From NCBI GenBank assembly GCA_024679065.1, contig JAGIQG010000019.1, positions 16,678,001-16,742,000 on the forward strand: a stretch of 64,000 nucleotides of DNA, read 5' to 3'. The position numbers were made by a program, and so were the translations under genes. Positions 74 through 63,352 of the stretch are shown one piece after another. The notes below the pieces were generated by a model. The model did no database searches and was not told the origin of the DNA. It saw only the letters and a list, made by a program, of their open reading frames with translations. Positions within the stretch are counted from its first letter, which is position 1. Every line of letters begins with the position of its first letter. The DNA is from Sphyrna mokarran (Eukaryota).

Positions 74-133
74 AAGTCATCACGACAACAGTGAAACCAA
101 CGACAACCAGTTCCACTATCATCCCCCCACCAG
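74..133 (+). CDS. Exon A (EVITTTVKPTTTSSTIIPPP)
   Basis: ttcttcag|...CCAG|gtgagt, 60 nt. Confidence 0.85.
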
Positions 134-6100: not shown

Positions 6101-9100
6101 GGGAACGTCTCTTGTGGGTTCAGCGAAGACATGGGTATTATCTGCCTCTATAAAGGTTTCTGCATTCTTGCTTCTGATCTCTAACCAGCAGCATCTTACA
6201 TGCTGCTAGCTGGATTCTGTTGTTCAGGGTGCGAAATGAATGCTGCCTCCTGCTTCCACAAAAAAGTTGCCAAGTATATAATTGTTTAGCTTTGAAGATT
6301 GAAATATCTCCTCAGAGGATGGTGTCTCTTCACCAGATTCCCATTATTTACAATCTTATCTCCACTTATAAGAGAGCGTCAGGATCAAAGTCAAAATTCA
6401 GAATGTCAGCAACCCTGACACTACCATTTGTATATACAATTCAGACTCCCTGATTGGTGGGCAATTATTAGCTCAATCAGGGAGCTTATAGTGCAAGAAG
6501 CCAAACTCCTGGCATCATTGAGGTCATTACAAGATCCATTCTTATAGCTGGCTCTATGCCTTCTTGCTTGTGTTACTTCCAATATTAACATGAATGTCTT
6601 CCCCAAATTGTACCAATGACTCCCCAAATTATTTCTAATTTGCAGGATGCTGTGTTTCTTTTTGGTCTGTCTACAACTGCTAATCTTGTTATTGAGTTTC
6701 CCATCCTGTGATACACCTTGTAAAATGTGGGCCCATTCACGACGGTAATAAAGTAAATCTCACAGTAAAACAGTGTTAGTTTTATGTTGTCCAGCAGTGA
6801 AGTTGATTGTGTTTCTTGGTCTTCAGAAGTCATCACTACAACAGTGAAACCAACGACAAGCAGTTCCACCACCATCCCCCCACCAGGTGAGTGAAATCTT
6901 TTGTTACACAATAGCAAAACCGTTGTCGCAAACTGTTTATTTGCTGCAATTTCCAGGCAGTGGAAAGACACTGCTTCACACTTATTTCTAGTTAGTGCCT
7001 AACTTCCCAAGTGAACTGATTGATAACAGACTGATTCAGATGAAGCTGGATGAAAATGTGTACACGAGAAGAAATGTGTGTTCCTATGTGTACTGTTCTC
7101 TCCTAGAATCTACTCGCTCAACAATATTTCCTGAACCTGATCCTAAATATCGCCTGACATTGGAATAATTTCTGCAGTCTGCATTTCTCGATGATGCTGA
7201 ATATTTTTAAAACAATAACAAATTTGTAAATGTGGACTTGTCTTTCTCCTGTTCAGCTTTGCTCCTTTATTCTCCATGTTAGTTGAGCTCGTTAGTAGCT
7301 GTAGACAGTATGTTCCTCATTCTTGTTGCCTTACTGTGAATTAAATCAGCTAATGTTGGAAGTCTATTAATACAGCTGGATTTCCAGTCAGAGTGCAGTG
7401 GTTTTGAATAATTCTCTTTTCCTGTAGAAGTGACAACTACAACAAAAGGAACACCAATTCCGACAACAACAGGTAATTGAGATTTTCCTTCAATATTGAA
7501 ATCTCCCTATTAGACACTCCCTCAGTTTCGATGATGACTTCCTTCCATTTGGGATCATGGGATGGCAGATGAGTCCAATGGACATTCTACACATTCTGCC
7601 GCATTCGGGAGTGATTTTGCTTTGAGAATAATTTAGATAACGTGCTTGGGGATTTGTGTGCTCGTTCCGATATCTCAAATTTATCTGTGAGACAATGTTT
7701 CTCGGTGTGTTTCCATTTGGGTCAGTCAGAGGCCGAGCACTCCCATGAATTGATGGGGATGTTTGGTGTCATCAGGAATCCTTCAGGACAGCCCTGAAGT
7801 GTTTCTTCTGTCCCATGGGTGTCTCCTTCTACCACCACCTTCTGGGCCAAGCTTTGGGAATCTGGTTTCAGGCAATCAAATGTCATCTTCTGCCCAGCCG
7901 AAGTGGTTACGTGTAATTGTTGACTCACTGCTGAATATGTTGTCTTGGGAGAGGACGCTGGCTGTTGGAAAGCCTTTCTTGCCATAGATTAGGAGGACCT
8001 TGCAAAGACACGTGTGTTACAGTTCTTTGAGGTGTAAGTTGTCCATTTTGACAAAGCAGAAAAGAGTGTGGTGCTCTGTGTGTGCCATAAAGCAAAACCT
8101 TAAACTCTTGTTTATCGTACAGGACCTCAATCATCATTTCAAATCCTCTTCCAAGTGCATCTGTTAACAAACGAAAACTAAACATACAAAACTACAATTA
8201 CAGAGATAAAGTTAGATATACACCATTGCTCAAAATATTTATATTTTAAGCTTAAAGGCTTAAAGTTTATTTATTTATCACAAGTAGTCTTACATTAGCA
8301 CTGCAATGAAGTTACTGTGAAAATCCACCAGTCGCCACACCCTGGCACCCGTTTAGGTGCACTGAGGGAGAATTTAGCATGGCCAGTGCACCTATTCAGC
8401 ATGTCTTTCAGACTATAGGAGGAAACTGGAGTAACCAGAGAAAACCCATGCAGACATCGGGAGAAAATACAAACTCCACACAGACAGTGACCCAAACCAG
8501 GAATTGAATCCGGGTCCTGGCTCTGTGAGGCATCGTGTGCTATTTTGCCACCCAGTCATGCCATCTACTTGGCTACACTCATAAATTAACACCCTTTTTT
8601 AGGCAACAGTCCCTATAGATACTAAATGTATAAAAATTGCAATGCTATTATCCCAAGTCATCTACTGTTTCTATAGTAGAAGTACTTCATTGAACTTCTC
8701 TCTTCTTCTCAATTGACAATGGAAATCAAAGGCTTGTAACAAAACCTTGCCTTCTGGAACAAACAGACACTTCTCCAGGGTAGCTACAGTCTGCTTGTGA
8801 AGCAAGCAGACTGTCCTGGCACAGCACACTTTTCAAGATGTCACATCACCGCTCCTCCCAATACATATTTCAATATTTCCTTAAACATTTTTTTCTCTTT
8901 CGTCTTCAAATCCATTATTTTCAACCTTCTTTGGGAGTTAGTTTTACCAAATGTAAAAAATGTTTCTTGTCTTCATGGCTATTACTCTCAGCAAAATAAT
9001 GGTAATAAAATCTTCTTTCTGCTTCTTTTGAAATTCTACACCTACAAATTCAACTCCTCACTTATCTCTTAAGGCAAATCCCCATTCATATTGCACTTAC

Positions 9101-12100
9101 TTGAATTCACCTACGTTTCCACTAATCTGCCGGATACAGCTTATCTGTTTTACCATTACCCCTTGACCAGAAAGCCCCACATTTCTGATCTCCATAATAA
9201 TGTCTACTCTCCATTTCCAATCCCTCCATAACTACTCTTCTTATCTCCCTAAATCCTGCCTCTGGTTTCCCTATAACCTTTAATCTCCCAGGAATTTGCT
9301 TTATAATCCAATTAGCTTATGCTTTGCCCTTTCCAATCTTTCCTGACTACAATCGTTCTCTCACTGGGATTTCCCCTCTTTGCCCGCTCCCCACACTATG
9401 ACCCTCCCAATTTCCCTGCCTTTCCCATTATATCCAGTCGTATTGAGTATTGTTCTCTGCCAATGTCTGGTGTGAAGGTCTAAAACTCATCTGTGGCTAG
9501 TCTCTCCAACTGGCTAACTGGCTATCTCTTGTGGGGTTAGGGAGAAACAATTGCACTCAGGTCCTCTCATTAATTTCAGCAGGTTCTACGGAAAGTCCGT
9601 TCTGCCTCTATAAATAGCAATAATTTTCTTTCATCCAGTATATTGAAATAGAATTTTTTGAATCAATTATGCAAATGTTGTCTTGCCACTTTCATATTTG
9701 TTAATCTTTCTGTTCAGAAATGACAACTTCGGCAGAAACACAAAAAACCACGGTCCGAATATATGAACATACTACAACACGTAAGTTGTGTCTTCCTTCA
9801 TTATCTTCCAGCAAGTCTCTTCACACGTTTTTCAAATTCACTTTTCAGGCAATGTCAGTCCATTACTTTAGTCTTATAGAAACTTTGTTTTGGGTGTAAA
9901 CGGTTGAACACAAGACCACGGGAGTGTTAATGACAGTTTTAAAGATTAAAGAAGGTGCTGATAGTGATATAAAGACAAAATAGCAGACTCTGTTTATAAT
10001 AAAACAAAGGTGAATCCTCTGTGATAGCAAAACTCAAGAACAAGTGACAGATGGCCCTTTGGGACTTTGAGGGAGAGGTGGTTATTGGGAGAAAAACAAA
10101 AATGCATTTTTGAAAAAGGGTCAATATAGAGAGGTGAGTGCATGGTATGAAGTTGCTAAACTCAATATAAATTTCAGAAGACTGGAAAGTGCCTCATCGG
10201 AAGATGGCGCGGATGATATTCTTACCTTTATGCCACCATTATCACCTTTAACGCGATCATTAACAGTCCCTGTGTGTTCTATGACATTGTTGTCGAGCCT
10301 CTCCTGATTCCATCTACCCCTGACCGTCTAGTTTCTTCTACCTACTCTATTCTCTTTTAAACAGGATAAAATCCATCACACTTCTCTGTCTCTCATTAGC
10401 TCTGTAGAAGAAGCTACCAAATCAATTGACAGCAACTAGAAATAATTCCAATAACAACTCCTCCCGTTGTGACTGATGGTTTCTTGTGATATACAGTAAC
10501 AAGGCACAGTCATATTTTTGCACAAGATCCTGGGCAGTAGAAGGACATTATTCATACTTGTAATTTTTTTAGCTCATTCCTTCCAGAGCGTGTTTTTTTA
10601 AATTGTAATTATTTTAATCAAATGAGATCAAAGTCTGTGGCTGAGGAGCTATGTTCACATGTGTGAATGTCTCTATATCATTTAGAAACTACATGCTTAG
10701 CAGCAATTAAATTTATTTATTAGTGCCACAAGTAGGCTTACATTAACACTGCAGTGCAGTTACTGTGAAAATCCCTGCGTTGCTACACTCCAACACCTAT
10801 TCGGGTACACTGAGGAAGAATTTAGCATGTCTTTTGGACTGTGGGAGAACATTGGAGCACTCAGAGGAAACCCACGCAGATATGTGTAAACTCCGCACAG
10901 ACAATGAACCAAGCCGGAAATCAAACCCCGGTTCCTGGCACTGAGCAACAGTGTTAACCACTGCGCCACCATGTCATCTTTCATTTTTGGATTGATGTGC
11001 TGTTAATTGCACAAAATATAAAGTTTACATTTCACGTCGATGGTGAAATTTTGTGTATTTTCAAATATCAATAAATCATTGTAATATACAGTCAAACGAT
11101 GATCCCATTGACCCTGTAATTCTTTACATTCTTTCCATTTTTTCTTTCGTCTATTAGATTGAGATGATTCTTTTGAAACACAATCAATTGTGTAACTATT
11201 GTTGTGTTTATCCTATGTTTGTGCTTACTGTTATTATTTGACAGACAGAAATAATGTTGTTCTTATTGTTGGAGGACAATCCCTTTCCTCATCCTATGTA
11301 CTTTGGTCTCAGTATAATACCACTTGATGAATTGCTCAATGCTGTAGGATTTGAATTTCGGACTCAGTAGTTTTATTTTCTTTTCTTGTGTTGCAGCTGT
11401 CACTGAAAAACTGGTAAAGGAATCTACAACAGGTAAGCGATTTCTTCTTTCAATACTCATCAATAAGTCTGTTCATACCAGGGGCAGTTTTCTCAAATTC
11501 AAGCTTCAGGCAATGTCAGTTCACCAGCTCAGCCAAGATGACACTGAACTTATGGGTAGAAATGGAAAGCTCAGAGGCATCTGAATCTGTGGACAATTTT
11601 TTCAACACCTCTGAAACCTAATCCATATGTAGATGTGTTCCATGTTCATCTGTCTGTTGTCATTTCTGCTTTGGTTCTCAACCTTATTGTTGAAATCATA
11701 TCAGGCCATGTGAAAGCATTGGAAGATTTCTGTTACTTGTCAATAGTGAGATTTTGTATGTTGTCAAATTTGGCAGATTTTTACTTGCTAAGGGGCGTGA
11801 TTGGGGCCAGATGAATTGACAGTGTGGATGGGGTGGTTAATATGTCCAACATTGACTTGTAGATCTTTTTACTAATGATGAACACAGCCAGCTGTGTCCA
11901 CGTCCATCTTGATTTGCTTACAATCGATCATGACTGTATTAAAAATAGGCAGTGATTGTGCCTCATTCATATTAAACATTGCCTATTCTAAGCTGTCTAG
12001 ATGATGTGTCATTGGTTGAGGTTTCATCACATTTAAATTTTCTTGCTCAGCCTTCACCTTGCTGATTCCATTTCTTCACAAAATTCCCTTTCTTATTGCA

Positions 12101-15100
12101 CTGGTGACAAATAGCATCCATAAATTTGATTTGCCCACTATACCTAAAACATTCCTCTGTTTTCACCTCCTTGTTTGCACCTACTTGTTCATTTGCTGCA
12201 GCATCAACCTTAGCCTTCTGAATATCCATTTCTTCCATGTGCGTGGAAATAATTGAATATTTGAAGACCACCGAATTCAGAAGTTATTTTATAAATAAAA
12301 GCAAAATACTGGAGATGCTGGAAATTCTGATTTAAAGATAATGCTGGATGAGTTCAGCAGGTCAGCGGCATCTGAAGAGAGAAACAGAGTTAAGGCATGG
12401 CTGCACTTGTCCCGAAAATGGAAAATCCCACCAGTGTCAGTGGATCTTTCCATTGTCCGCATCTCTCCAGCTTTCAATCACAAGGCAGGCAGAACAAGAA
12501 AATTTGCACCAGTATTAGATGACTCTTCCACAGATCCTTCTGCAGAAAGATTAGTTAGATCTGAAACATTAAATCATTTTCTCTCCAGAAGTACTAGTAG
12601 ATCTGCTGAGGATATCCACCATTTTCTATTTTATGGTCTAATCACAACAGCATGTTTGTAGGAAAGCCAACTAAATAAACTTTGCAGTCACACATTGCTA
12701 GATTTATGTTGCCTTGCCAGAGATTTGATCGCGTTTCTTGTTCTCCAAAAGAAACCAGAAAACCAGTTATGTTGTACTACAGTGAAGTTGATTGTGTTTC
12801 TTGTTCCCCAGAAGGGACCAGTAAACCAATAATATCAAGTACCAGCAGTTACACTATCGGGCATCTGGTGTCAGGCAATCAAATGTTATCTCCTGCCCAG
12901 CCGAAGTGGTTACGTGTAATTGTTGACTCACTGCTGAATATGTTGTCTTGGGAGAGGATGCTAGCTGTTGGGAAGTGTTTCTTGCCATAGATTAGGATTA
13001 CCTTGCAAAGACACTTGTGTTACAATTCTCCAGTGTTTTGAGGTGGCTGCTATAAGTTGTCCAATTTGACAAAGCAGAAAAGAGTGTGGTGCTCTGTGCT
13101 GTGCGATAAAGGAAAACCTTAGCCTCTTGTTGTAGGACAGGGCCACAATCATCTTTCCAAATCCTCTTCCAAGTGCATCTGAATCAACATTGGCTCAGAC
13201 AACTCCAGTCCATCAATTCAGTCCTTTAGTTTCATCCAATTCCTTTGGGATGGAGTTATTTGTAAAGTTCAGTATTCTCAGTCTGCAATCAGTGACATTT
13301 TCACATTCACAAAAACGGTGTTGTGACAAGCTCTCTCTTGGGAGGTTTCTCTATCGGAAAATCAGATGGTTAATGTTTCAATAGTTTCATCTGTAAGTTT
13401 GATCCTTTCATCCCATTTTGTGTCCTCTTGTGGCTGCTTATTACAATAAAATTTTCGGCAAAATTTTAACTCCTGTTCGTAAACGTACAGTTTGTTCTTC
13501 ATGCTGGTGCTCACAATCTGCAGACATTTCAATTCCAAAAGAGTTATTTCCAGATGTTGTCAATGTTGCTGTCTTGATAGAGTGCTGATTTTGAAAGGTC
13601 TTTCTTTGTCTGCAGTACCAATGACAACAACAACAACACAGGAAACAACGACCACAACTCGAAAACCTACTACAACAGGTTAGTGCTGTTTCCTTTGAAT
13701 ATTCACCAGCAAGTCTGTTCACAGAGATGTGCTTATTAGTTTCAGTGTCTGTTCAATCGGTCGGCTTTGCCCACACCTCCTATTCGAAAGAAATGGTTGA
13801 AAATTTACTCAAATTTGAATCATCAATTCGATTTGTGAACCTCATTTTGACACCAAGATCTATATGATGTTTTCTGGTAAACTGGACAGGAATACAATGG
13901 TGTTGACATGGTGGTGAATTGGGTTCATTCATTTTCTTCCCTTTCAGAAAGGGTCACTGTGACAGTAAAACTATCGGGTTTCAGCGCGAATTATAAATTT
14001 ATAATTTCAACATGGGGATGCGCTGTGACTATACTTTCCAAAGGGAAATGGTATTTTTACTGCTTGAATAAAGGTAGATCTGAGGTGGGAGCTCAGGGGA
14101 AATGCTGTGTGCATAAATGTTCATACCAGTGCACTCTTCTCAAATTTCCCTTATAGATATTATTCAGGGGAATGTCTCTTGTAGATTCAGTGAAAAAATA
14201 GGTTTTATCTGCCTCCACAAAGGTTTCTGCACTCTTCTTCTGCTCTGCTAACCTTACATGCTACTAGCTGGATTTTGTGCCTCAGGCTGCTAAATGGATG
14301 CTGCCTCCTGCTCCCACAAAAAAGTTGCCAAATATATAATTGTTTAGCTTTGAAGATTAAATATCTCCTCAGAGGATGGTGTCTCTTCACCAGATTCCCA
14401 TTATTTACAATCTTATCTCCACTTATAAAAGTGCGTCAGGATCAATGTCAAAATTCATAGTGTCAGCAGCCCTGACTCTCCCATTTCTATAAACAATTCA
14501 GACTCCCTGATTGGTGGGCAATTATTAGCTCAATCAGGGTGCTTATAGTGCAAGAAGCCAAACTCCTGACCTCATTGAGGTCATTACAAGATCCATTCTT
14601 ATAGCTGGCTCTATGCCTTTTGCTTGTGTTACTTCCAATATTAACATGAATGTCTTCCCCAAATTGTACCAATGCCTCCCCAAATTATTTCCAATTTGCA
14701 GGATGCTGTCTTCCTTTTTGGTCTGTCTACAACTGCTAATCTTGTTACTGCTTTTGCCATCCTGTGATACACCTTGTAAAATGTGGACCATTCAAGACAG
14801 CAACAAAGTAAATCTCACATTGAAACACTGTTAGCTTGATGTTGTCCAGCAGTGAAGTTGATTGTGTTTCTTGTTTTTCAGAAGTCATCACTGAAACAGT
14901 GAAACCAACGACAACCAGTTCCACTACCATCCCCCCTCCAGGTGAGTGAAATCTTCTTTCGTTACACAATAGCAAAACCGGTGTCGCAAACTGTTCATTT
15001 GGAGCAATTTCCAGGCAGTGGAAAGACACTGCTTCACACTTATTTCTAGTTAGTCCCTAACTTCCCAAGTGAACTCATCGATAACCGTGTGATTCAGATG

Positions 15101-18100
15101 AAGTTCAATGAGAACATATACATGAGAAGAAATGTTTTCTCTGTGTTTCTGTGTGTACTGTTCTCTCCTAGAATCGACTCGCTCAACAATATTTCCTGAA
15201 CCTATTCCGAAATATAGCCTGAGATTGGAATAATTTCTGCAGTCTCCATTACACAACGATGCTGATATGCAGCATCTTTGTCAAAGTTCAGTAGCTTCCA
15301 CAACAGCTGAATTAAATAAGCTAATGTTGGAAGTCTATTAACACATTTGGATTTCCAGTAGAGTGAAGTGGTTTTGAATAATTCTCTTTTCTGTAGAAGT
15401 GACAACTACAACAAAAGGAACACCAATTCCGACGACAACAGGTAATTGAGATTTTCCTTCAATATTGGAATCTCCCTATTAGACACTCCCTCGGTTTCCA
15501 TGATGACCTCTTTGAATTAGGGATCATGGGATGGCAGATGAGTCCAATGGATAATCTGCACGTTCTGCCACATGGGGGACAGACTTTGCTTCAAGAATAA
15601 TTTAGATAACGTGCTTGGGGATTTGTCTGCTCGTTCTGATATCTCAAATTTATCTGTGAGACAATGTTTCTTCGTGTGTTTCCATTTGGGTCAGTCAGAG
15701 GCCGAGCACTCCCATGAATTGACGGGGAAATTTGGAGTCATCAGGAATCGTTCAAAACAGCCCTGAAGTGCTTCTTCTGTCCCACGGGTATCTCCTTCTA
15801 TCAGTTCAGTATTCTCAAACTACAATCAGTGACATTTTCACATTCATAAAAACGGTGTTGTGACAAGCTCTCCCTTGGGAGGATTCTCCATTGGAAAATC
15901 GGATCGTTAATGTTTCAACGGTTTCATCTGTAAATTTGATCGTTTCATCCCATTCTGTGTCCCTTTGTGGCTGCTTATTCTAATACAATTTTCGGGAAAA
16001 TCTTCACTCCTGTTCGTAAATGTACACTTTGTACTTCAATGCTGGTGCTCACAGTCTACAGACATTTCAATTCCAAAAGAGTTATCTCCAGATGTTGTCA
16101 ATGTTGCTGTCTTGATAGAGTGCTGATTTTGAAAGATCTTTCTTTGTCTGCAGTACCAACGACAACAACAACAACACAGGAAACACCAACCACACCTGGG
16201 AAACCGACTACAACAGGTTAGTGCTGTTTCCTTTCAATATTCACCAGCATGGCTTTTCACAGTGGTGTGCTTATCTGCTTCAGTGTCTGTTCATTTGTTC
16301 AGTCTTGCCCACACCTCTTGTTCGAAAGAAACGGTTGAAAATTTACTCAAATTTGAATCATCAATTGGATTTGTGAACCTCATTTTGACACCAAGATCTA
16401 TATGATAGTCGATATGATGGTTTTCTGGTCAAAGGGGAGAGGAGTACAATGGTGTTGACATTGTGGTGAATTGGTTTCATTCTTTCTTTTCTCCTTCAGA
16501 AAGGGTCACTACAACAGTGAAACCATCTACCATTGGGCCCCCTCCAGGCTCCACATCAGGTGAGTAACGGCTTCTTTGCTTCAACCGCAGCAAGAGCTGG
16601 AAACAAGTGAAATAAACACAGATAGTGGTGGAAATATTCAGCAACGCTGACAACACCTGCTGAGTATGTGCAGCACTTTCTGTTTGCATATCAGATTTCC
16701 AGCAAGCACAGCATTTCACATTTTGTTCAATGCAAAAGGGACCTCATTTCATCGCAAATGACAAATTCATCATTTCACCATGGGGACGCGCTGTGACTGT
16801 ATTATCGAAAGGGAAATGGCATTTTTACTGCCTGAATAAAGGTAGATCTGAGGTGGGAGCTGAGGGGAAATGCTGTGTGCATAAATGTTCACACCAGTCA
16901 CTCTTCTCAAATTCCCCTTTTAGACAATGCCCGTCCATTCAGTCAGACTTATCAACATTTTCTTATGGAGTGTTTCAAATCGTCTGAATCCAGATTTACT
17001 AGTGCAAACAAGACAATTGCAACAAAGCCAGCTGTCACAAAGCTGGCTGATGTTAACTGCGAGAATGTCCCAATTGGGAAACACCAATTCATGGAGTGTG
17101 CACTTTTGTCTGCTGGAACAGTGAAAGGGACCACGTGTAATTCCCACAGAGAACAATAACCAGCCAAATCATTGTATAATACTTATTAATATCTGTTTAT
17201 TACAATGAAGAAAAGACACATTTACACACAAACAGGAGTATAAAACATTTATAAATAAGACTAGTAAACCCACCCACCACCAGTTTAATAAGGAATTACC
17301 GTTCTGATCCAAAGCAGGTTTAAAAGATCTGAACTATTTCAGGACTTCCCTCTTTCGCAATAGCATCCAATTCAACAGATATATAAATAAAGGCCAGCTT
17401 ACATTTAACACTGTATCATTATTCTGGGAAACTTCTCTTGTAGGTTCAGCGAAGCAATGGGTTTTATCTGCTTCCACAAAGGTTTCTGCACTCTTGCTTC
17501 TGCTCTGCTAACCAGCAGCACCTTACATGTTGCTAGCTGTATATTGTGCCTCAGGCTACTAAATGGATGCTGCCTCCTGCTTCCACAAAAAAGTTGCCAA
17601 GTATATAATTGTTTAGCTTTGAAGATTGAAATATCTCCTCAGAGGATGGTGTCTCTTCACCAGATTCCTATTATTTACAATCTTATCTCCACTTACAAGA
17701 CTGCGTCAGGATCAAAGTCAAAATTCAGAATGTCAGCAACCCTGACACTACCATTTGTATATACAATTCAGACTCCCTGGTTGGTGGGCAATTATTAGCT
17801 CAATCAGGGAGCTTACAGTGCAATAAGACAAACTTCTGGCCTCATTGACGTCATTACAAGATCCATTCTTATAGCTGGCTCTATACCTTCATGCTTGTGT
17901 TACTTCCAATATTAACATGAATGTGTTCCCCAAATTGTACCAATGCCTCCCCAAATTATTTCCAATTTGCAGGATGCTGTGTTTCTTTTTGGTCTGTCTA
18001 CAACTGCTAATCTTGTTATTGAGTTTCCCATCCTGTGATACACCTTGTTAAGTGTTTGCGCATTTCTGACAATAATAAAGTAAATCTCACAGTAAAACAG

Positions 18101-45100: not shown

Positions 45101-48100
45101 TGTTAATGTTTCAACAGTTTCATTTGTAAGTTTGATCCTTTCATCCCATTTATGTCCTTTTGTGGCTGCTTATTCTAATACAATTTTCGGGAAAATCTTC
45201 ACTCCTGTTCGTAAATGTACACTTTGTACTTCAATGCTGGTGCTCACAGTCTACAGACATTTCAATTCCAAAAGAGTTATCTCCAGATGTTGTCAATGTT
45301 GCTGTCTTGATAGAGTGCTGATTTTGAAAGATCTTTCTTTGTCTGCAGTACCAACGACAACAACAACAACACAGGAAACACCAACCACACCTGGGAAACC
45401 GACTACAACAGGTTAGTGCTGTTTCCTTTCAATATTCACCAGCATGGCTTTTCACAGTGGTGTGCTTATCTGCTTCAGTGTCTGTTCATTTGTTCAGTCT
45501 TGCCCACACCTCTTGTTCGAAAGAAACGGTTGAAAATTTACTCAAATTTGAATCATCAATTGGATTTGTGAACCTCATTTTGACACCAAGATCTATATGA
45601 TAGTCGATATGATGGTTTTCTGGTCAAAGGGGAGAGGAGTACAATGGTGTTGACATTGTGGTGAATTGGTTTCATTCTTTCTTTTCTCCTTCAGAAAGGG
45701 TCACTACAACAGTGAAACCATCTACCATTGGGCCCCCTCCAGGCTCCACATCAGGTGAGTAACGGCTTCTTTTCTTCAACAGCAGCAAGAGCTGGAAACA
45801 AGTGAAATAAACACAGATAGTGGTGGAAATATTCAGCAACGCTGACAACACCTGCTGAGTATTTGCAGCACTTTCTGTTTGCATATCAGATTTCCAGCAA
45901 GCACAGCATTTCACATTTTGTTCAATGCAAAAGGGACCTCATTTCATCGCAAATGACAAATTCATCATTTCACCATGGGGACGCGCTGTGACTGTATTAT
46001 CGAAAGGGAAATGGCATTTTTACTGCCTGAATAAAGGTAGATCTGAGGTGGGAGCTGAGGGGAAATGCTGTGTGCATAAATGTTCACACCAGTCACTCTT
46101 CTCAAATTCCCCTTTTAGACAATGCCCGTCCATTCAGTCAGACTTATCAACATTTTCTTATGGAGTGTTTCAAATCGTCTGAATCCAGATTTACTAGTGC
46201 AAACAAGACAATTGCAACAAAGCCAGCTGTCACAAAGCTGGCTGATGTTAACTGCGAGAATGTCCCAATTGGGAAACACCAATTCATGGAGTGTGCACTT
46301 TTGTCTGCTGGAACAGTGAAAGGGACCACGTGTAATTCCCACAGAGAACAATAACCAGCCAAATCATTGTATAATACTTATTAATATCTGTTTATTACAA
46401 TGAAGAAAAGACACATTTACACACAAACAGGAGTATAAAACATTTATAAATAAGACTAGTAAACCCACCCACCACCAGTTTAATAAGGAATTACCGTTCT
46501 GATCCAAAGCAGGTTTAAAAGATCTGAACTATTTCAGGACTTCCCTCTTTCGCAATAGCATCCAATTCAACAGATATATAAATAAAGGCCAGCTTACATT
46601 TAACACTGTATCATTATTCTGGGAAACTTCTCTTGTAGGTTCAGCGAAGCAATGGGTTTTATCTGCTTCCACAAAGGTTTCTGCACTCTTGCTTCTGCTC
46701 TGCTAACCAGCAGCACCTTACATGTTGCTAGCTGTATATTGTGCCTCAGGCTACTAAATGGATGCTGCCTCCTGCTTCCACAAAAAAGTTGCCAAGTATA
46801 TAATTGTTTAGCTTTGAAGATTGAAATATCTCCTCAGAGGATGGTGTCTCTTCACCAGATTCCTATTATTTACAATCTTATCTCCACTTACAAGACTGCG
46901 TCAGGATCAAAGTCAAAATTCAGAATGTCAGCAACCCTGACACTACCATTTGTATATACAATTCAGACTCCCTGGTTGGTGGGCAATTATTAGCTCAATC
47001 AGGGAGCTTACAGTGCAATAAGACAAACTTCTGGCCTCATTGACGTCATTACAAGATCCATTCTTATAGCTGGCTCTATACCTTCATGCTTGTGTTACTT
47101 CCAATATTAACATGAATGTGTTCCCCAAATTGTACCAATGCCTCCCCAAATTATTTCCAATTTGCAGGATGCTGTGTTTCTTTTTGGTCTGTCTACAACT
47201 GCTAATCTTGTTATTGAGTTTCCCATCCTGTGATACACCTTGTTAAGTGTTTGCGCATTTCTGACAATAATAAAGTAAATCTCACAGTAAAACAGTGTTA
47301 GTTTTATGTTGTCCAGCAGTGAAGTTAATTGTGTTTCTTGTTCTTCAGAAGTCATCACTACAACAGTGAAACCAACAACAAGCAGTTCCACTACCATCCC
47401 CCCACCAGGTGAGTGAAATCTCTTTTCTTACACAATAGTAAAACCGGTGTCACAAACTGTTCATTTGCAGTAATTTCCAGGCAGTGGAAAGACACTGCTT
47501 CACACTTATTTCTAGTTAGTTCCTAACTTCCCAACTGAACGTATTGATAACGGACTGATTCAAATGAAGCTGGATGAGAACATGTACATGAGAAGAAATG
47601 TTTTCTCTGTGTTTCTGTGTGTACTGTTCTCTCCTAGAATCCACTCACTCAACAATATTTCCTGAACCTGTTCCTAAATATCACCTGACATTGGAATAAT
47701 TTCTGCAGTCTGCATTACACAATGATGCTGATATGCAGCATCTTTGTCAAAGTTCAGTAGTTTCCACAACAGCTGAATTAAATAAGCTAATGTTGGAAGT
47801 CTATTAACACAGTTGGATTTCCAGTAGAGTGAAGTGGTTTTGAATAATTCTCTTTTCTGTAGAAGTGACAACTACAACAAAAGGAACACCAATTCCGACG
47901 ACAACAGGTAATTGAGATTTTCCTTCAATATTGGAATCTCCCTATTAGACACTCCCTCAGTTTCCATGATGACTTCTTTCCATTTGGGATCATGGGATGG
48001 CAGATGAGTCCAATGGATAATCTGCACGTTCTGCCACATGGGGGACAGACTTGCTTCGAGAATAATTTAGATAACGTGCTTGGGGATTTGTCTGCCCGTT

Positions 48101-51100
48101 CTGATATCTCAAATTTATCTGTGAGACAATGTTTCTTCGTGTGTTTCCATTTGGGTCAGTCAGAGGCCGAGCACTCCCATGAATTGACGGGGAAATTTGG
48201 AGTCATCAGGAATCGTTCAAGACAGCCCTGAAGTGCTTCTTCTGTCTCACGGGTATCTCCTTCTATCAGCGCACTCTGGGCAAAGCCGTTGTCTTGGGAG
48301 TCTGGTGTCAGGCAATCAAATGTCATCTTCTGCCCAGCCGAAGTAGTTACGTGTAATTGTTGACTCACTGCTGAATATTTTGTCATGGGAGAGCTTGCTG
48401 GCTGTTGGAAAGCCTTTCTTGCCATAGATTAGAAGGACCTTGCAAAGACGCTCGTGTTACAATTTTCCAGTGTTTTGAGATGGCTGCTATAAGTTGTCCA
48501 ATTTGACAAAGCAGAAAAGAGTGTGGTGCTCTGTGCTGTGCGATAAAGGAAAACATGAGCCTCTTGTTGTAGTACAGGGCCACAATCATCTTTTCAAATC
48601 CTCTTCCAAATGCATCTTAATCAACATTGGCTCAGACAACTCCAGTCCATCAATTCAGTCCTTTAGTTTCATCCAATTCCTTTGGGATGGAGTTATTTGT
48701 AAAGTTCAGTATTCTCAATCTGCAATCAGTGACGTTTTCACATTCACAAAAACTGTGTTGTGACAAGCTCTCCCTTGGGAGATTTCTCGATCGGAAAATC
48801 AGATTGTTAATGTTTCAACAGTTTCATTTGTAAGTTTGATCCTTTCATCCCATTTATGTCCTTTTGTGGCTGCTTATTCTAATACAATTTTCGGGAAAAT
48901 CTTCACTCCTGTTCGTAAATGTACACTTTGTACTTCAATGCTGGTGCTCACAGTCTGCAGACATTTCAATTCCAAAAGAGTTATCTCCAGATGTTGTCAA
49001 TGTTGCTGTCTTGATAGAGTGCTGATTTTGAAAGATCTTTCTTTGTCTGCAGTACCAACGACAACAACAACAACACAGGAAACACCAACCACACCTGGGA
49101 AACCGACTACAACAGGTTAGTGCTGTTTCCTTTCAATATTCACCAGCATGGCTTTTCACAGTGGTGTGCTTATCTGCTTCAGTGTCTGTTCATTTGTTCA
49201 GTCTTGCCCACACCTCTTGTTCGAAAGAAACGGTTGAAAATTTACTCAAATTTGAATCATCAATTGGATTTGTGAACCTCATTTTGACACCAAGATCTAT
49301 ATGATAGTCGATATGATGGTTTTCTGGTCAAAGGGGAGAGGAGTACAATGGTGTTGACATTGTGGTGAATTGGTTTCATTCTTTCTTTTCTCCTTCAGAA
49401 AGGGTCACTACAACAGTGAAACCATCTACCATTGGGCCCCCTCCAGGCTCCACATCAGGTGAGTAACGGCTTCTTTTCTTCAACAGCAGCAAGAGCTGGA
49501 AACAAGTGAAATAAACACAGATAGTGGTGGAAATATTCAGCAACGCTGACAACACCTGCTGAGTATTTGCAGCACTTTCTGTTTGCATATCAGATTTCCA
49601 GCAAGCACAGCATTTCACATTTTGTTCAGTGCAAAAGGGACCTCATTTCATCGCAAATGATAAATTCATCATTTCACCATGGGGACGCGCTGTGACTGTA
49701 TTATCGAAAGGGAAATGGCATTTTTACTGCCTGAATAAAGGTAGATCTGAGGTGGGAGCTGAGGGGAAATGCTGTGTGCATAAATGTTCACACCAGTGCA
49801 CTCTTCTCAAATTCCCCTTTTAGACAACGCCCGTCCATTCAGTCAGACTTATCAACATTTTCTTATGGAGTGTTTCAAATCGTCTGAATCCAGATTTACT
49901 ATTGCAAACAACACAATTGCAACAAAGCCAGCTGTCACAAAGCTGGCTGATGTTAACTGCGAGAATGTCCCAATTGGGAAACACCAGTTCATGGAGTGTG
50001 CACTTTTGTCTGCTGGAACAGTGAAAGGGACCACATGTAATTCCCACAGAGAACAATAACCAGCCGAATCATTGTATAACACTTATTAATATCTGTTTAT
50101 TACAATGAAGAAAAGACACATATACACACAAACAGGATTATAAGACATTTATAAATAAGACTAGTAAACCCACCCACACAGTTTAATAAGGAATTACCGT
50201 TCTGATCCAAAGCAGGTTTACAAGATCTGAACTATTTCAGGACTTCCCTCTGTCGCAATAGCATCCAATTCAACAGATATATAAATAAAGGCCAGCTTAC
50301 ATTTAACACTGTATCATTATTCTGGGAAACTTCTCTTGTAGGTTCAGCGAAGCAATGGGTTTTATCTGCCTCCACAAAGGTTTCTGCACTCTTGCTTCTG
50401 CTCTGCTAACCAGCAGCACCTTACATGCTGCTAGCTGTATATTGTGCCTCAGGCTACTAAATGGATGCTGCCTCCTGCTTCCACAAAAAAGTTGCCAAGT
50501 ATATAATTGTTTAGCTTTGAAGATTGAAATATCTCCTCAGAGGATGGTGTCTCTTCACCAGATTCCCATTATTTACAATCTTATCTCCACTTATAAGAGT
50601 GCGTCAGGATCAAAGTCAAAATTCAGAATGTCAGCAACCCTGACACTACCATTTGTACAATTCAGACTCCTGATTGGTGGGCAATTATTAGCTCAATCAG
50701 GGAGCTTATAGTGCAATAAGACAAACTTCTGGCCTCATTGACGTCATTACAAGATCCATTCTTATAGCTGGCTCTATTCCTTCTTACTTGTCTTACTTCC
50801 AATATTAACATGAATGTCTTCCCCAAATTGTACCAGTGTCTCCCCAAATTATTTCCAATTTGCAGGATGCTGTGTTTCTTTTTGGTGCATCTACAACTGG
50901 TAATCTTGTTATTGAGTTTTGTATTCTGTGATACACCTTGTTAAGTGTTTGTGCATTTATGACAATAATAAAGTAAATCTCACAGTAAAACAGTGTTAGT
51001 TTTATGTTGTCCAGCAGTGAAGTATATTGTGTTTCTTGTTCTTCAGAAGTCATCACTACAACAGTGAAACCAACGACAACCAGTTCCACGACCATCCCCC

Positions 51101-54100
51101 CACCAGGTGAGTGAAATCTCCTTTTGTTACACAATAGCAAAACCTTGTGTCGCAAACTGTTCATTTGCAGGAATTTCCAGGCAGTGGAAAGACAATTCTT
51201 AACACTTATTTCTAATTAGTGCCTACCTTCCCAAGTGAACGTATTGATAACGGACTGATTCAGATGAAGCTGGATGAGAATGTGTACATGAGAAGAAAAC
51301 TTCTGTGTTCCTTGTGTACTGTTCTCTCCTCGCATCTACTCACTCAACAATATTTCCTGAACCTGTTCCTATATATCGCCTGACATTGTAATAATTTCTG
51401 CAGTCTACATTACATGATGATGCTGATATGCAGCATCTTTGTCAAAGTTCAGCAGTTTCCATAACATTTCTTATCAATGGATCTTCCCCTTAGCATGATG
51501 TGATTGTTAATATTCTTCCATTTTCTTCTCTCGCTCAGTAATTTAGAATACTTTTGAAACAATAACAAATTTGTAAATGCGGACATGCCTTTCTTCTGTT
51601 CAGCTTTGCTCCTTTATCCTCCAAGTTAGTTGAGCTCGTTAGTAGCTGTGGACAGTATGTTCCTCACTCTTGTTGCCTTGCTGTGAATTAAATCAGCTAA
51701 TGTTGGAAGTCTTTTAGTACAGCTGGATTTCCAGTCAGATTGCAGTGGTTTTGAATAATTCTCTTTTCTTGTAGAAGTGACAACTACAACAAAAGGAACA
51801 ACAATTCCAACAACAATAGTGATTGAGATTTTCTTTCAATATTGTAATCTCCCTATGAGACACTCCCTCGGTTTCGATGATGACTTCTTTCCATTAGGGA
51901 TCATGGGATGGCAGATGAGTCCAATGGACAATCTGCACGTTCTGCCGCATGCCGGACAGGCTTTGCTTCGAGAATAATTTAGATAACGTGCTTGGGGATT
52001 TCTCTGCTCGTTCCGATATGTCAAATTTATCTGTGAGACAGTGTTTCTCGCTGTGATTCCATTTGGGTCAGTCAGAGGCCAAGCACTCCCATGAATTGAT
52101 GGGGATGTTTGGTATCATCAGGAATCCTTCAAGACAGCCCTGAAGTATTTCTTCTGTCCCCCTGGTATCTCCTGCTATCATTGCATTCTGAGCAATGCTG
52201 TTGCTTTGGGAATGTGGTTTCAGGCAATCAAATGTCATCTGCTGCCCAGCCGAAGTGGTTACGTGTAATTGTTGACTCCCTGCTGAATATGTTGTCTTGG
52301 GACAGCATCCTGGCTGTTGGAAAGCCTTTCTTGCAATAGATTAGGAGGACCTTGAAAAGACACGTGTGTTACAATTCTTTGAGGTGTAAGTTGTCCAATT
52401 TGACAAAGCAGAAAAGAGTGTGGTGCTCTGTGCTGTGCGATAAAGCAAAATCTTAGCCTCTTGTTGTAGAACAGGACTGCAATCATCTTTTCAAATCCTC
52501 TTCCATGTGCATCTTCATCAACATTGGCTCAGACAATTGCAGTCCGTCAATTAAGACCTTTAGTTTGATCCAATTCCTTAGGGATGGAGTTATTTGTAAA
52601 GTTCAGTATTCTCAATCTGCAATCAGTAACGTTTTCACATTCACAAAAACGGTGTTGCGATAAGCTCTCCCTTGGGAGGTTTCTCTATCGGAAAATCAGA
52701 TTGTTAATGTTTCAACAGTTTCATCTGTAAGTTTGATCCTTTCATCCCATTCTGTGTCCCTTTGTGGCTGCTTATTCTAATACAACTTTCGGGAAAATCT
52801 TCACTCCTGTTCGTAAACGTACAGTTTATTCTTCATGCTGGTGCTCACAGTCTGCAGACATTTCAATTCCAAGAGTTATTTCCAGATGTTGTCAATGTTG
52901 CTGTCTTGATAGAGTACTGATTTTGAAAGGTCTTTCTTTGTCTGCAGTACCAACGAACAACACAGGAAACACCAACCACACCTGGGAAACCTACTACAAC
53001 AGGTTAGTGCTGTTTCCTTTCAATATTCACCAGCATGGCTTTTCACAGTGGTGTGCTTATCTGCTTCAGTGTCTGTTCATTTGTTCAGTCTTGCCCACAC
53101 CTCGTGTTCAAAGGAAATGGTTGAAAACTTACTCTAATTTGAAACATCAATTGGATTTGTGAACCTCATTTTGACACCACAATCTATATGATGGTTTTCT
53201 GGTCAAAGTGGACAGGAATACAATGGTGTTGACATTGTGGTGAATTGATTTCATTCTTTCTTTTCTCCTTCAGAAAGGGTCACTACAACAGTGAAACCAT
53301 CTACCACTGGGCCCCGTCCGGGCTCCACATCGGGTGAGTAACGGCTTCTGTTCTTCAACAGCAGCAAGAGCCGGAAACCAGTCAAATAAAAACAAATGGT
53401 GCTGGAAATATTCATCAATGCTAACACCTGTTGAGTATTTGGAGCACTTTCTGTTTGCATATCAGATTTGCAGCAAGCACAGCATTTTACATTTTATTCA
53501 ATGAAAAAGTCAGCTTATAGTCCAAGAAGCCAAACTCCTGGTCTGATTGAGGTCGTTACATGATCCATTCTTATAGTTCTTGCTTGTGTTACTTCCAATA
53601 TTAACATGAATGTCTCCCCCAAAGTGTACCAATGCCTCCCCAAATCATTTCCAGCTTTCAGGATGCTGTGTTTCTTTTTGATCTGTGTACACCTGCTAAT
53701 CTTGTTCTTGAGTTTCCCATCCTGTGATAAACCTTGTAAAATATTTGCCCATTCACAACAATAACAAAGTAAATCTCACAGTAAAACAGTGTTAGCTTTA
53801 TGTTGTCCAACAGTGAAGTTGATTGTGTTTCTTGTTCTTCAGAAGTCATCACTACAACAGTGAAACCAACGACAACCAGTTCCACTATCATCCCCCCACC
53901 GGGTGAGTGACATCTTCTTTCGTTACACAATAGCAAAACCGGTGTCGCAAACTGTTCATCTGGGGCAATTTCCAGGCAGTGGAAAGACAGTGGTTCTCAC
54001 TTAATTTCTAGTTAGTTCCTAACTTCCCAACTGAATGTATTGATAACGGACTGATTCAGATGAAGCTGGATGAGAATGTGTACATGAGAAGAAATGTTTT

Positions 54101-63100: not shown

Positions 63101-63352
63101 AATTTGTAAATGTGGACTTGTTTTCCTCCTGTCCAGCTTTGCTCCTTTATTCTCCAAGTTAGTTGAGCTCGTTAGTAGCTGTAGACAATATGTTCCTCAT
63201 TCTTGTTGCCTTGCTGTGAATTAAATCAGCTAATGTTGGAAGTCTATTAATACAGCTGGATTTCCAGTCAGAGTGCAGTGGTTTTGAATAGTTCTCTTTT
63301 CCTGTAGAAGTGACAACTACAACAAAAGGAACACCAATTCCAACGACAACAG
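74..63352 (+). CDS. Internal part of a multi-exon mucin-like (PTS-domain) gene; about 60 intact phase 1-1 microexons, about 1134 codons; 5' and 3' ends lie outside the window
   Basis: Repeated polypyrimidine+YAG acceptors and GT(R/T)A donors flank 36-63 nt 3n exons that splice into one stop-free frame. The A-B-C-D unit is 76 aa with 33 Thr, 14 Pro, 5 Ser and no Cys or Asn. Confidence 0.88.
803..846 (+). pseudogene. Exon B copy with damaged donor (44 nt, ATA|gtgatt)
   Basis: 1 nt shorter than the consensus ACAG|gtaatt; would shift the frame if used. Confidence 0.6.
880..1545 (-). mobile_element. Degraded 3' fragment of an RTE-clade LINE ORF2; present in every B-C intron, partly deleted in some copies
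   Basis: Minus-strand remnants SILSQDNI, FPETRFSKQ, GQKKHF..LKDS, NIPINSWE and CPACGRMCRLSIGLFCH (plus WTTYSSHLKTLE in other copies) resemble the RTE C-terminus. Boundaries approximate. Confidence 0.75.
1975..2037 (+). CDS. Exon C (VPTTTTTTQETTPTPGKPTTT)
   Basis: tctgcag|...ACAG|gttagt, 63 nt. Confidence 0.85.
2309..2368 (+). CDS. Exon D (ERVTTTVKPSTIGPPPGSTS)
   Basis: ttctccttcag|...TCAG|gtgagt, 60 nt. Confidence 0.85.
2893..2952 (+). CDS. Exon A
   Basis: AG/GT, 60 nt. Confidence 0.8.
3624..3668 (+). CDS. Exon B (EVTTTTKGTPIPTTT)
   Basis: ttttcctgtag|...ACAG|gtaatt, 45 nt. Confidence 0.85.
4816..4878 (+). CDS. Exon C
   Basis: AG/GT, 63 nt. Confidence 0.85.
5162..5221 (+). CDS. Exon D
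   Basis: AG/GT, 60 nt. Confidence 0.85.
6827..6886 (+). CDS. Exon A
   Basis: AG/GT, 60 nt. Confidence 0.85.
7428..7472 (+). CDS. Exon B
   Basis: AG/GT, 45 nt. Confidence 0.85.
8162..8845 (-). mobile_element. Possible 3' LTR of an LTR retrotransposon that interrupts the array (with a nested SINE)
   Basis: Array homology ends near 8162. The minus strand shows purine-rich GGGAGGAGCGGTGA, then TGTGAC (8845), ending in GTTAACA (8162): TG..CA termini with a PPT-like tract. Confidence 0.4.
8263..8553 (-). mobile_element. tRNA-derived V-SINE
   Basis: V-domain-like GGAGGAAACTGGAG..GAAAACCCATGCAGAC..CAAACTCCACACAGAC, B-box-like GGATTCAATTCC on the minus strand, (TAAA)n tail. Confidence 0.8.
9718..9780 (+). 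CDS. Unique divergent exon E (EMTTSAETQKTTVRIYEHTTT)
   Basis: ctttctgttcag|...ACAC|gtaagt, 63 nt, phase 1-1, Thr-rich, open frame. Confidence 0.75.
10709..10973 (-). mobile_element. tRNA-derived V-SINE (same family as 8263-8553)
   Basis: Minus-strand A-box TGGCGCAGTGG, B-box-like GGTTTGATTTCC, V-domain and the same tail. Confidence 0.8.
11397..11432 (+). CDS. Unique exon F (xVTEKLVKESTT)
   Basis: tttcttttcttgtgttgcag|...ACAG|gtaagc, 36 nt, phase 1-1. Confidence 0.7.
11880..12280 (-). mobile_element. Degraded Gypsy-type gag-protease fragment
   Basis: Minus strand: decayed zinc knuckle CFR...KFMDAICHQCNKKGN followed by the aspartic-protease-like PIFNTVMIDCKQIKMDVDTA. Confidence 0.65.
12292..12633. 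mobile_element. Inverted-repeat relic resembling the Penelope-like element ends common in shark/ray genomes
   Basis: ATGCTGGATGAGTTCAGCAGGTCAGCGGCATCTGAAGAGAGAAACAGAGTTAA has an imperfect reverse complement at about 12560-12630. Family assignment is from recall. Confidence 0.55.
12812..12862 (+). pseudogene. Truncated A-like exon relic (EGTSKPIISSTSSYTIG), donor deleted
   Basis: A-type acceptor context (agtgaagttgattgtgtttcttgttccccag), then fused directly to B-C intron sequence. Confidence 0.6.
13616..13678 (+). CDS. Exon C variant (VPMTTTTTQETTTTTRKPTTT)
   Basis: AG/GT, 63 nt. Confidence 0.8.
13948..13977 (+). pseudogene. Truncated exon D (ERVTVTVKLS); original donor deleted, only a weak in-phase G|gtttca remains
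   Basis: Acceptor intact; the 3' half of the exon and the intron start are missing. Confidence 0.6.
14882..14941 (+). CDS. Exon A
   Basis: AG/GT, 60 nt. Confidence 0.85.
15397..15441 (+). CDS. Exon B
   Basis: AG/GT, 45 nt. Confidence 0.85.
16154..16216 (+). CDS. Exon C
   Basis: AG/GT, 63 nt. Confidence 0.85.
16500..16559 (+). CDS. Exon D
   Basis: AG/GT, 60 nt. Confidence 0.85.
18154..18213 (+). CDS. Exon A
   Basis: AG/GT, 60 nt. Confidence 0.85.
18668..18712 (+). CDS. Exon B
   Basis: AG/GT, 45 nt. Confidence 0.85.
19858..19920 (+). CDS. Exon C
   Basis: AG/GT, 63 nt. Confidence 0.85.
20204..20263 (+). CDS. Exon D
   Basis: AG/GT, 60 nt. Confidence 0.85.
21120..21164 (+). CDS. Exon B (starts Ala; TAGCAG acceptor)
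   Basis: AG/GT, 45 nt. Confidence 0.8.
22293..22355 (+). CDS. Exon C
   Basis: AG/GT, 63 nt. Confidence 0.85.
22639..22698 (+). CDS. Exon D
   Basis: AG/GT, 60 nt. Confidence 0.85.
24237..24296 (+). CDS. Exon A
   Basis: AG/GT, 60 nt. Confidence 0.85.
24753..24797 (+). CDS. Exon B
   Basis: AG/GT, 45 nt. Confidence 0.85.
25944..26006 (+). CDS. Exon C
   Basis: AG/GT, 63 nt. Confidence 0.85.
26290..26349 (+). CDS. Exon D
   Basis: AG/GT, 60 nt. Confidence 0.85.
27938..27997 (+). CDS. Exon A (ends STTVPTP)
   Basis: AG/GT, 60 nt. Confidence 0.85.
28471..28515 (+). CDS. Exon B
   Basis: AG/GT, 45 nt. Confidence 0.85.
29665..29727 (+). CDS. Exon C
   Basis: AG/GT, 63 nt. Confidence 0.85.
30011..30070 (+). 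CDS. Exon D
   Basis: AG/GT, 60 nt. Confidence 0.85.
31652..31711 (+). CDS. Exon A
   Basis: AG/GT, 60 nt. Confidence 0.85.
32383..32427 (+). CDS. Exon B (last base T; weaker donor CAT|gtaatt)
   Basis: AG/GT, 45 nt. Confidence 0.7.
32962..35707 (-). mobile_element. 5'-truncated CR1-clade LINE inserted antisense in a B-C intron
   Basis: CR1-type ORF2, CR1 3' motif GGGCCGAAGGGCCTGTTTCC, short poly(A), candidate 4-bp TSD TTGT (32958-32961 / 35708-35711). Array sequence resumes exactly after it. Confidence 0.95.
33429..35703 (-). pseudogene. CR1 ORF2 (endonuclease C-terminus + reverse transcriptase), frameshifted
   Basis: PTREGAILDLVL, KAPGPDGIYPRLL, DVVYMDFSKAFDKVPH, GVPQGSVLGPLLF, FAGDTK (normally FADDTK), YTTLVRPHLEYC; split over 4 ORF pieces. 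Confidence 0.92.
36310..36372 (+). CDS. Exon C
   Basis: AG/GT, 63 nt. Confidence 0.85.
36656..36715 (+). CDS. Exon D
   Basis: AG/GT, 60 nt. Confidence 0.85.
38251..38310 (+). CDS. Exon A
   Basis: AG/GT, 60 nt. Confidence 0.85.
38981..39025 (+). CDS. Exon B (TAGCAG acceptor, last base T)
   Basis: AG/GT, 45 nt. Confidence 0.7.
40172..40234 (+). CDS. Exon C
   Basis: AG/GT, 63 nt. Confidence 0.85.
40518..40577 (+). CDS. Exon D
   Basis: AG/GT, 60 nt. Confidence 0.85.
42164..42223 (+). CDS. Exon A
   Basis: AG/GT, 60 nt. Confidence 0.8.
43645..43704 (+). CDS. Exon A
   Basis: AG/GT, 60 nt; follows a noisy junction. Confidence 0.78.
44159..44203 (+). CDS. Exon B
   Basis: AG/GT, 45 nt. Confidence 0.8.
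45349..45411 (+). CDS. Exon C
   Basis: AG/GT, 63 nt. Confidence 0.8.
45695..45754 (+). CDS. Exon D
   Basis: AG/GT, 60 nt. Confidence 0.8.
47349..47408 (+). CDS. Exon A
   Basis: AG/GT, 60 nt. Confidence 0.8.
47863..47907 (+). CDS. Exon B
   Basis: AG/GT, 45 nt. Confidence 0.8.
49053..49115 (+). CDS. Exon C
   Basis: AG/GT, 63 nt. Confidence 0.8.
49399..49458 (+). CDS. Exon D
   Basis: AG/GT, 60 nt. Confidence 0.8.
51047..51106 (+). CDS. Exon A
   Basis: AG/GT, 60 nt. Confidence 0.82.
51775..51818 (+). pseudogene. Exon B copy with damaged donor (44 nt, ATA|gtgatt)
   Basis: Same lesion as 803-846. Confidence 0.6.
52948..53002 (+). pseudogene. Exon C copy with an 8-nt deletion (55 nt)
   Basis: Splice sites intact; the ACA run is shortened by 8 nt. 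Confidence 0.6.
53274..53333 (+). CDS. Exon D variant (ERVTTTVKPSTTGPRPGSTS)
   Basis: AG/GT, 60 nt. Confidence 0.8.
53843..53902 (+). CDS. Exon A
   Basis: AG/GT, 60 nt. Confidence 0.85.
54572..54619 (+). CDS. Exon B with one extra Thr codon (48 nt)
   Basis: AG/GT, in-frame +3 indel. Confidence 0.85.
55762..55824 (+). CDS. Exon C (VPTTTTTTPETTTTPGKPTTT)
   Basis: AG/GT, 63 nt. Confidence 0.85.
56759..56818 (+). CDS. Exon A
   Basis: AG/GT, 60 nt. Confidence 0.85.
57490..57534 (+). CDS. Exon B
   Basis: AG/GT, 45 nt. Confidence 0.85.
58674..58736 (+). CDS. Exon C
   Basis: AG/GT, 63 nt. Confidence 0.85.
59673..59732 (+). CDS. Exon A
   Basis: AG/GT, 60 nt. Confidence 0.85.
60406..60450 (+). 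CDS. Exon B (last base T)
   Basis: AG/GT, 45 nt. Confidence 0.7.
61584..61646 (+). CDS. Exon C
   Basis: AG/GT, 63 nt. Confidence 0.85.
62575..62634 (+). pseudogene. Exon A copy with a dead donor (CCAG|atgagt)
   Basis: +1 G>A relative to the other 16 copies. Confidence 0.65.
63308..63352 (+). CDS. Exon B
   Basis: AG/GT, 45 nt. Confidence 0.85.

Follow-up and report, generated by a model that had tools for sequence, protein, structure and literature searches.

The window analysed here, a 64,000-nucleotide stretch of Sphyrna mokarran DNA (contig C760, 16,678,001-16,742,000), very probably holds the central proline-, threonine- and serine-rich (PTS) part of a gel-forming mucin from a shark, a member of the Muc19/spiggin clade. 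This region would be encoded by about 100 small phase-1 exons, multiplied in blocks and spliced into a single rod. A further 200 kb was added on each side of the window, and coordinates below are relative to its first letter unless a contig is named.

The part of the array that lies in the window (74-63352, plus strand) contains 65 exon copies, 60 of them intact and encoding 1134 residues. Four exon types recur, all on the plus strand. Type A (60 nt, 17 copies, 74-62634) starts at 74, 2893, 6827, 14882, 18154, 24237, 27938, 31652, 38251, 42164, 43645, 47349, 51047, 53843, 56759, 59673 and 62575, and its acceptor is a NAGNAG. Type B (45 nt, 17 copies, 803-63352) starts at 803 (44 nt), 3624, 7428, 15397, 18668, 21120, 24753, 28471, 32383, 38981, 44159, 47863, 51775 (44 nt), 54572 (48 nt), 57490, 60406 and 63308. 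Type C (63 nt, 16 copies, 1975-61646) starts at 1975, 4816, 13616, 16154, 19858, 22293, 25944, 29665, 36310, 40172, 45349, 49053, 52948 (55 nt), 55762, 58674 and 61584. Type D (60 nt, 2309-53333) starts at 2309, 5162, 16500, 20204, 22639, 26290, 30011, 36656, 40518, 45695, 49399 and 53274, and a truncated remnant at 13948 brings it to 13 copies. Two more exons, E (63 nt, 9718-9780) and F (36 nt, 11397-11432), are single-copy, on the same strand and of phase 1-1.

One exon of each recurring type (60 + 45 + 63 + 60) gives a unit of 228 nt, or 76 codons. The intact copies, defined by AG/GT sites, a length divisible by three (3n) and phase 1-1, comprise 16 A, 15 B, 15 C and 12 D exons together with E and F. 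Joined, they read through 1134 residues with no stop (the alternative frames have 47 and 4), with 43.7% Thr, 17.3% Pro and 6.7% Ser, a P/T/S content of 67.6%; array exons make up 5.4% of the window span. An earlier note on this DNA, made from the letters alone, had described 17 A, 17 B, 16 C and 13 D copies plus E and F, canonical splice sites in the intact copies, and a stop-free join of about 1134 residues built on a 76-residue unit with about 68% P/T/S, 43% Thr and about 5% coding; the recount reproduces the copy numbers exactly and the other values closely. Two of its descriptions have to be given up. The repeat is not a uniform 3.7 kb, as the A-to-A spacing ranges from 1481 to 8055 nt (mostly 2.8-4.6 kb), and the term microexon, which strictly means about 30 nt or less, does not suit exons of 36-63 nt, which are better called small exons.

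As a control for chance, a filter on splice score and P/T/S composition was scanned by phase and strand over 1.144 Mb; it is crude, and its counts are lower bounds. On the plus strand, phase 1 yielded 212 exons, phase 0 none and phase 2 eight; on the minus strand the counts, in the same order, were 21, 2 and 1, with 18 of the 21 in an inverted paralogue. The three 20-kb bins at 16.68-16.74 Mb held 55 phase-1 exons; phases 0 and 2 and the minus strand had none there. Because the control is so skewed by phase and strand, chance splice sites are ruled out as the source of the exons. A reading of the array as pure satellite was also rejected. Tandem Repeats Finder, which is limited to periods of 500, did not detect the array for that reason.

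The repeats that self-BLAST returned for the window are all direct, with 90-99% identity over 2.5-9 kb, and there was no minus-strand match at that threshold. Duplicated blocks of 5-9 kb are 95-99% identical with their introns included (15803-21045 against 44999-50238, 99.0%; 23873-32955 against 43281-52361, 95.2%), which bears out the proposal that the gene grew by copying whole exon-intron blocks; unequal crossing-over is the likely mechanism. The 2.9-kb units beyond 53.8 kb are without D and have in common one new junction behind the C donor. Exons A and D are 76-78% alike across 50 nt around the acceptor, and B and C have donor-side sequence in common; these likenesses point to a likely older doubling of a two-exon unit as the origin of the four-exon one.

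The array is longer than the window. PTS exons span -40,614 to +70,258 (111 kb), beginning 40.6 kb ahead of the window and ending 6.3 kb past it, and a C-D probe gave 28 matches, all inside C760 16.647-16.747 Mb. Among the 113 copies examined over the whole array, 99 exons are intact (1884 residues, 67.5% P/T/S), and three single-copy exons bring the total to about 102 exons and 1943 residues. Past the fourth single-copy PTS exon, the spliced model built with Mustelus as guide is unreliable (one stop, forced sites), and boundaries were taken from another exon comparison.

Mucin domains were found on both sides of the array, as the earlier note had suggested looking for. Upstream, between -91,996 and -47,958, spliced alignment with the catshark orthologue as guide yields a signal peptide followed by D1-D2-D'-D3, stop-free over 342 + 859 residues; three tiny early exons of this model are unreliable, and the signal peptide was called by eye and from 59% identity to the orthologue. 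Downstream lie the CysD exon or exons (73,500-73,876), the VWD4-C8 exons (76,590-85,071) and the cystine-knot exons (from 86,356 to a stop near 87,486), and the C-terminal spliced model has 596 residues, no stops and canonical sites. Pfam placed VWD, TIL and Mucin2_WxxW above cut-off on single exons and found four VWD domains on the orthologue, which is 80% identical. The terminal cystine-knot exons are 60% identical to those of the orthologue. With a signal peptide, three N-terminal VWD-C8-TIL units, a central PTS domain and, at the C-terminus, a cystine knot, the predicted product is a gel-forming mucin. Of the two products that had been considered, a mucin or a stalk protein, the flanks thus single out a secreted mucin; a membrane stalk protein is excluded, as the gene model has no SEA domain or transmembrane segment and is terminated by the cystine knot.

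In MUC2, MUC5 and VWF the ends of the protein form disulfide-linked polymers, and the Thr-rich middle of such a mucin is a bottle-brush of glycans that makes the gel. In the present gene about 100 phase-1 exons are likely spliced into a rod of roughly 1940 residues, which is predicted to be O-glycosylated. Since the intact exons are 3n and phase 1-1, the frame would survive the gain, loss or skipping of any one of them; dead copies would therefore be tolerated, and several rod lengths per animal are likely through splicing. Copies that shift the frame would be skipped or, in the case of the B at 51775 and the C at 52948, spliced together.

What weighs against this interpretation lies in the damaged copies, in the modest constraint on the array and in some of the individual assignments. 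Over the whole array 11 of the 113 copies are dead or shifted; the five that are not intact in the window are the copies B803, B51775, C52948, A62575 and D13948, named by type and start. D13948 is truncated. A62575 (62575-62634, plus strand) has its donor changed from GT to AT and is predicted to be skipped in frame, as may happen with all four AT-donor copies in the array. B803 and B51775 are 44 nt long, having lost one nucleotide at what is now a weak donor. There are six such 44-nt B copies across the array (two within the window), each with one base lost at the donor; five of the six would truncate the protein if spliced in and are therefore predicted to be skipped. C52948, the sole frameshifted C among 27, lacks 8 nt (55 nt) and has perfect AG/GT sites. 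Included alone, it would shift the frame and bring a stop into the CysD exon, at residue 361 of 481. B51775 sits immediately before it, and the pair (51775-53002, plus strand) is frame-shifting singly and in frame jointly, so that splicing both would restore the frame through to CysD; this rescue requires the weak donor of B51775.

If C52948 were spliced in alone, the gene would be real but the assembled allele null or truncated, with its message degraded. We regard this as improbable, though it is the rival that survives best. C52948 retains wild-type splice sites around its 8-nt loss, its inclusion leads to the stop just described, and five paralogues could make up for the loss of one gene; against this, every flanking exon is stop-free with canonical sites, and the only shifted C is preceded by a 44-nt B that restores the frame, a coincidence that we put at roughly 1 in 10 (5/27 x 1/2). 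At C52948, a misassembly or heterozygosity is possible in place of a null allele. The fate of this exon may thus be compensation by B51775, skipping, a null allele or an assembly error.

Constraint within the array is modest. Variant alleles per site amount to 0.364 for exons, 0.298 for splice flanks and 0.489 for introns, and the difference between exons and introns (p=0.04) rests on four exons against 57 windows. The within-array pN/pS is 0.62 (p=0.07). Indels are 3n in 4 of 5 cases in exons and 22 of 153 in introns, a bias confounded by slippage of ACA microsatellites, which favours 3n anyway. An earlier estimate of 0.35 for exons against 0.71 for introns was discarded as probably inflated by non-homologous flanks. 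A comparison of dead with live B copies, in which dead ones had more exon changes (p=0.0007), was also discarded as evidence for relaxed selection; the result may reflect ancestry, because dead B copies carry more intron changes as well.

Across species the pattern is firmer. Compared with the Mustelus orthologue, exon A and six of the seven upstream exons that are single-copy agree in 14-19 of 17-20 residues, a level that none of 200 shuffles reached, and exon D matches at 11 of 20, reached by one shuffle of 200; exons B, C, E and F and an upstream exon did no better than shuffles in this comparison (9-182 of 200). The expectation that exons would be better conserved than introns is therefore clearly upheld between species and only modestly within the array (0.36 against 0.49). 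Homologous exon peptides are present in other sharks. The catshark (Scyliorhinus canicula) orthologue has RefSeq isoforms numbered to X39, and RefSeq isoforms are based on transcript alignments. When 16 of these were compared with X2, the ends were identical in 15, and the differences consisted of central blocks of 1-440 residues. All six single-residue differences fall at the starts of blocks homologous to the exons described here and would fit alternative NAGNAG acceptors. The larger skips, lying in near-identical repeats, may be mapping artefacts, and in S. mokarran splicing is predicted from genomic sequence.

Tandem NAGNAG motifs occur at A and B acceptors in the window (for example at 74 and 3624), where one residue could be gained or lost, as in the catshark isoforms.

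These data also bear on the possibility that the mucin is expressed but its array is mostly an intronic satellite, spread passively and with few copies spliced in. The weak exon constraint and the dead or shifted copies would suit such an origin, and recent copies (90-99% identical) could be intact merely because they are young. This account is nevertheless very unlikely: the intact copies have strong, near-identical splice sites with no visible basis for selective skipping, splice flanks vary less than introns, three further paralogues have phase-1 arrays of their own that encode different peptides, and the orthologue models in other sharks contain repeated blocks.

The assignment of the gene to the Muc19/spiggin clade draws on its best matches, a quick tree and synteny with LRRK2. 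The nearest proteins come from sharks, in keeping with the origin first guessed for this DNA (Mustelus asterias, 85%, and Scyliorhinus canicula, 80% identity over 1143 residues of D1-D3), and make a carcharhiniform source likely. The Mustelus orthologue has 881 matches; in the best 120 of them, every named protein from outside the chondrichthyans, barring unnamed or uninformative labels, is mucin-19 or mucin-19-like: Latimeria scores 1179 bits, mammals score about 990-1100, the named mucin-19 rows run down to 981, and the first MUC5AC comes last at 980. In the tree, all shark paralogues group with the MUC19 rows against a MUC5-type trio (SH-aLRT 100), and the MUC5AC row is split from the present gene by the longest inner branch; it counts against the placement that this tree was a quick search with a midpoint root, on 22 rows (21 picked from 157 proteins, plus this gene) without MUC2 or MUC6. 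Against the reading of the gene as a whole, Pfam Cys_knot scored 19.4 bits on the last exon alone, below the cut-off of 24 (E=0.0013). LRRK2 beta-propeller (3') exons lie at C760 15.833-15.846 Mb, and the first mucin VWD1 follows 21 kb on, at 15.867 Mb, on the same strand; LRRK2 was located with an LRRK2-specific family, as a COR-A search gave LRRK1 on another contig and missed LRRK2. Human MUC19, LRRK2 and SLC2A13 lie within one 742-kb region (PMC10557577). Searches with alpha-adaptin and CUE, aimed at the AP2A2-MUC6-MUC2-MUC5-TOLLIP cluster, gave no match on C760, but few candidates were scored and the second mucin cluster described below was not marked either.

A Muc2/Muc5-type mucin is the least probable of the alternatives: CysD and a fourth VWD are both present, CysD characterizes MUC2 and MUC5 while mammalian Muc19 is without VWD4 (PMC4948705), and the orthologues carry the automatic labels mucin-2-like or mucin-6-like, yet the match ranking, the tree and the LRRK2 adjacency favour Muc19, a separate five-gene mucin cluster lies on another contig, spiggins with a fourth VWD are on record (PMC4948705) and two bichir-family mucin-19-like proteins have CysD. 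We therefore file the gene in the Muc19/spiggin clade and, because VWD4 and CysD are present, not under the mammalian MUC19 architecture.

Within the window, 7500-14800 is a mostly single-copy island that holds E, F, the D remnant at 13948 and a truncated A-like remnant fused to intron sequence (12812-12867, plus strand); it is probably an older stretch that has remained between two blocks of amplification. A B-C intron contains an insertion on the minus strand (32900-35712, ends approximate) with broken reverse-transcriptase-like frames, which from its motifs we take to be a long interspersed element (LINE)-like retrotransposon and which lengthens only its own unit within the window's array.

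The gene is one of six tandem gel-forming mucin genes beside LRRK2 at C760 15.87-17.02 Mb, five on the plus strand and one inverted; their six VWD1 exons lie at 15.87-17.01 Mb, and five more VWD1 exons lie on contig C1437. Phase-1 small-exon arrays with differing peptides are found in four of the six. One of these has at least 36 exons across about 185 kb, another about 70 across 85 kb, and the present gene about 99; the inverted one has 18, together with five CysD. The other two have long PTS frames of about 1060 and 685 codons, with one and two small exons, respectively. The first paralogue (C760 15.93-16.12 Mb), with at least 36 mostly 57-nt exons and no VWD4 match, is nearer to the mammalian MUC19 layout. 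In the second, at C760 16,276,500-16,282,000, long T/S-rich frames overlap in all three phases, and frameshifts or assembly errors are possible. Three Muc19 paralogues have been described in the elephant shark (PMC4948705). The second cluster, at C1437 63.9-65.2 Mb, has five mucin-type VWD1 exons. One of its mucins lacks small exons and carries long PTS frames, with no CysD or VWD4 match within 120 kb; at 64.53-64.73 Mb a VWD1 exon was found and neither a D3 end nor a PTS region.

More tentatively, and with considerable doubt, the locus may be read as a six-gene shark Muc19 cluster that has switched repeatedly between giant-exon and small-exon designs, in which the arrays would serve as a splicing dial for mucin length and glycan load and C52948 would be rescued by B51775. 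According to a proposal by Lang et al. (2006; PMC1552070), the ancestral vertebrate design is a PTS region of many exons with length control by splicing, and this locus offers a large, gap-free case from a cartilaginous fish. Both PTS designs, the long exon and the small exons, stand side by side in one cluster. The small-exon layout would permit one animal to vary the length of its mucus protein through splicing, and long reads could distinguish the copies by the single-nucleotide differences between them, which makes length control a directly testable idea. For annotation, the shark genes next to LRRK2 that are labelled mucin-2-like or mucin-6-like seem to form an expanded Muc19 clade with CysD and the fourth VWD retained, which suggests that mammalian MUC19 lost both. 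More generally, an apparent satellite of 111 kb can be coding, and repeat masking would hide such a region.

Among known systems, one of similar design is chicken Muc13, whose PTS region consists of at least 12 near-identical 20-residue exons (Lang et al., 2006; PMC1552070). There, as here, the repeat units sit on separate in-frame exons (each of the 60 intact ones in the window is 3n and phase 1-1). Chicken Muc13, however, is a transmembrane SEA mucin with one exon per repeat, whereas the present protein would be secreted, with a four-exon unit of 76 residues and some 100 exons spread across 111 kb. Chicken MUC2, with cDNA-supported 69-residue repeats over exons 32-45 and one splice variant (PMC3549977), and Xenopus Otogl/MucXS, with a multi-exon mucin domain (PMC5789918), are likewise gel-forming and have multi-exon PTS regions, but they belong to other clades and the chicken gene has far fewer PTS exons. 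FIM-C.1 is polymorphic through alternative splicing (PMC7177656). In human MUC2, MUC5AC, MUC5B and MUC6 the PTS region lies on one exon (PMC9712336). The contrast that had been drawn between mammalian PTS domains in one large exon and multi-exon ones elsewhere is nevertheless too sharp, as dog and otter MUC19 RefSeq isoforms differ by PTS blocks of 11-90 residues in six of eight isoform comparisons. Zhu 2011 and Culp 2004 are said to describe human and mouse MUC19 as many-exon genes.

By sequence and tree the closest clade is that of mammalian MUC19 and stickleback spiggin (PMC4948705, PMC2180178, PMC4989455, PMC10557577). The present gene resembles mammalian MUC19 in its LRRK2 neighbour and spiggin in its tandem gene expansion. 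Mammalian MUC19 differs in being single-copy and without VWD4, and the human gene has a variable-number tandem-repeat exon of about 12 kb; in the shark gene, CysD and VWD4 are both present, the repeat is T/P-rich where that of MUC19 is G/T/S-rich, and there is no large PTS exon. The RefSeq shark orthologues XP_038667154.1 (Scyliorhinus canicula) and XP_078090733.1 (Mustelus asterias) contain homologous exon-sized peptides. In the Scyliorhinus canicula, Carcharodon and Pristiophorus orthologues the repeated block contains CysD, unlike this array and the examined part of the Mustelus model; different shark lineages have therefore amplified different blocks. Gel-forming mucins have been identified in shark skin mucus by mass spectrometry (PMC10707392). 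In the literature searched, subscription papers and supplements lying outside its scope, we found no description of PTS exon structure in sharks or of a Muc19 expansion this large in them. The multi-exon PTS design is thus a known principle; what is new here is the scale, the four-exon unit, the mixture of architectures within one cluster and the candidate compensating frameshifts.

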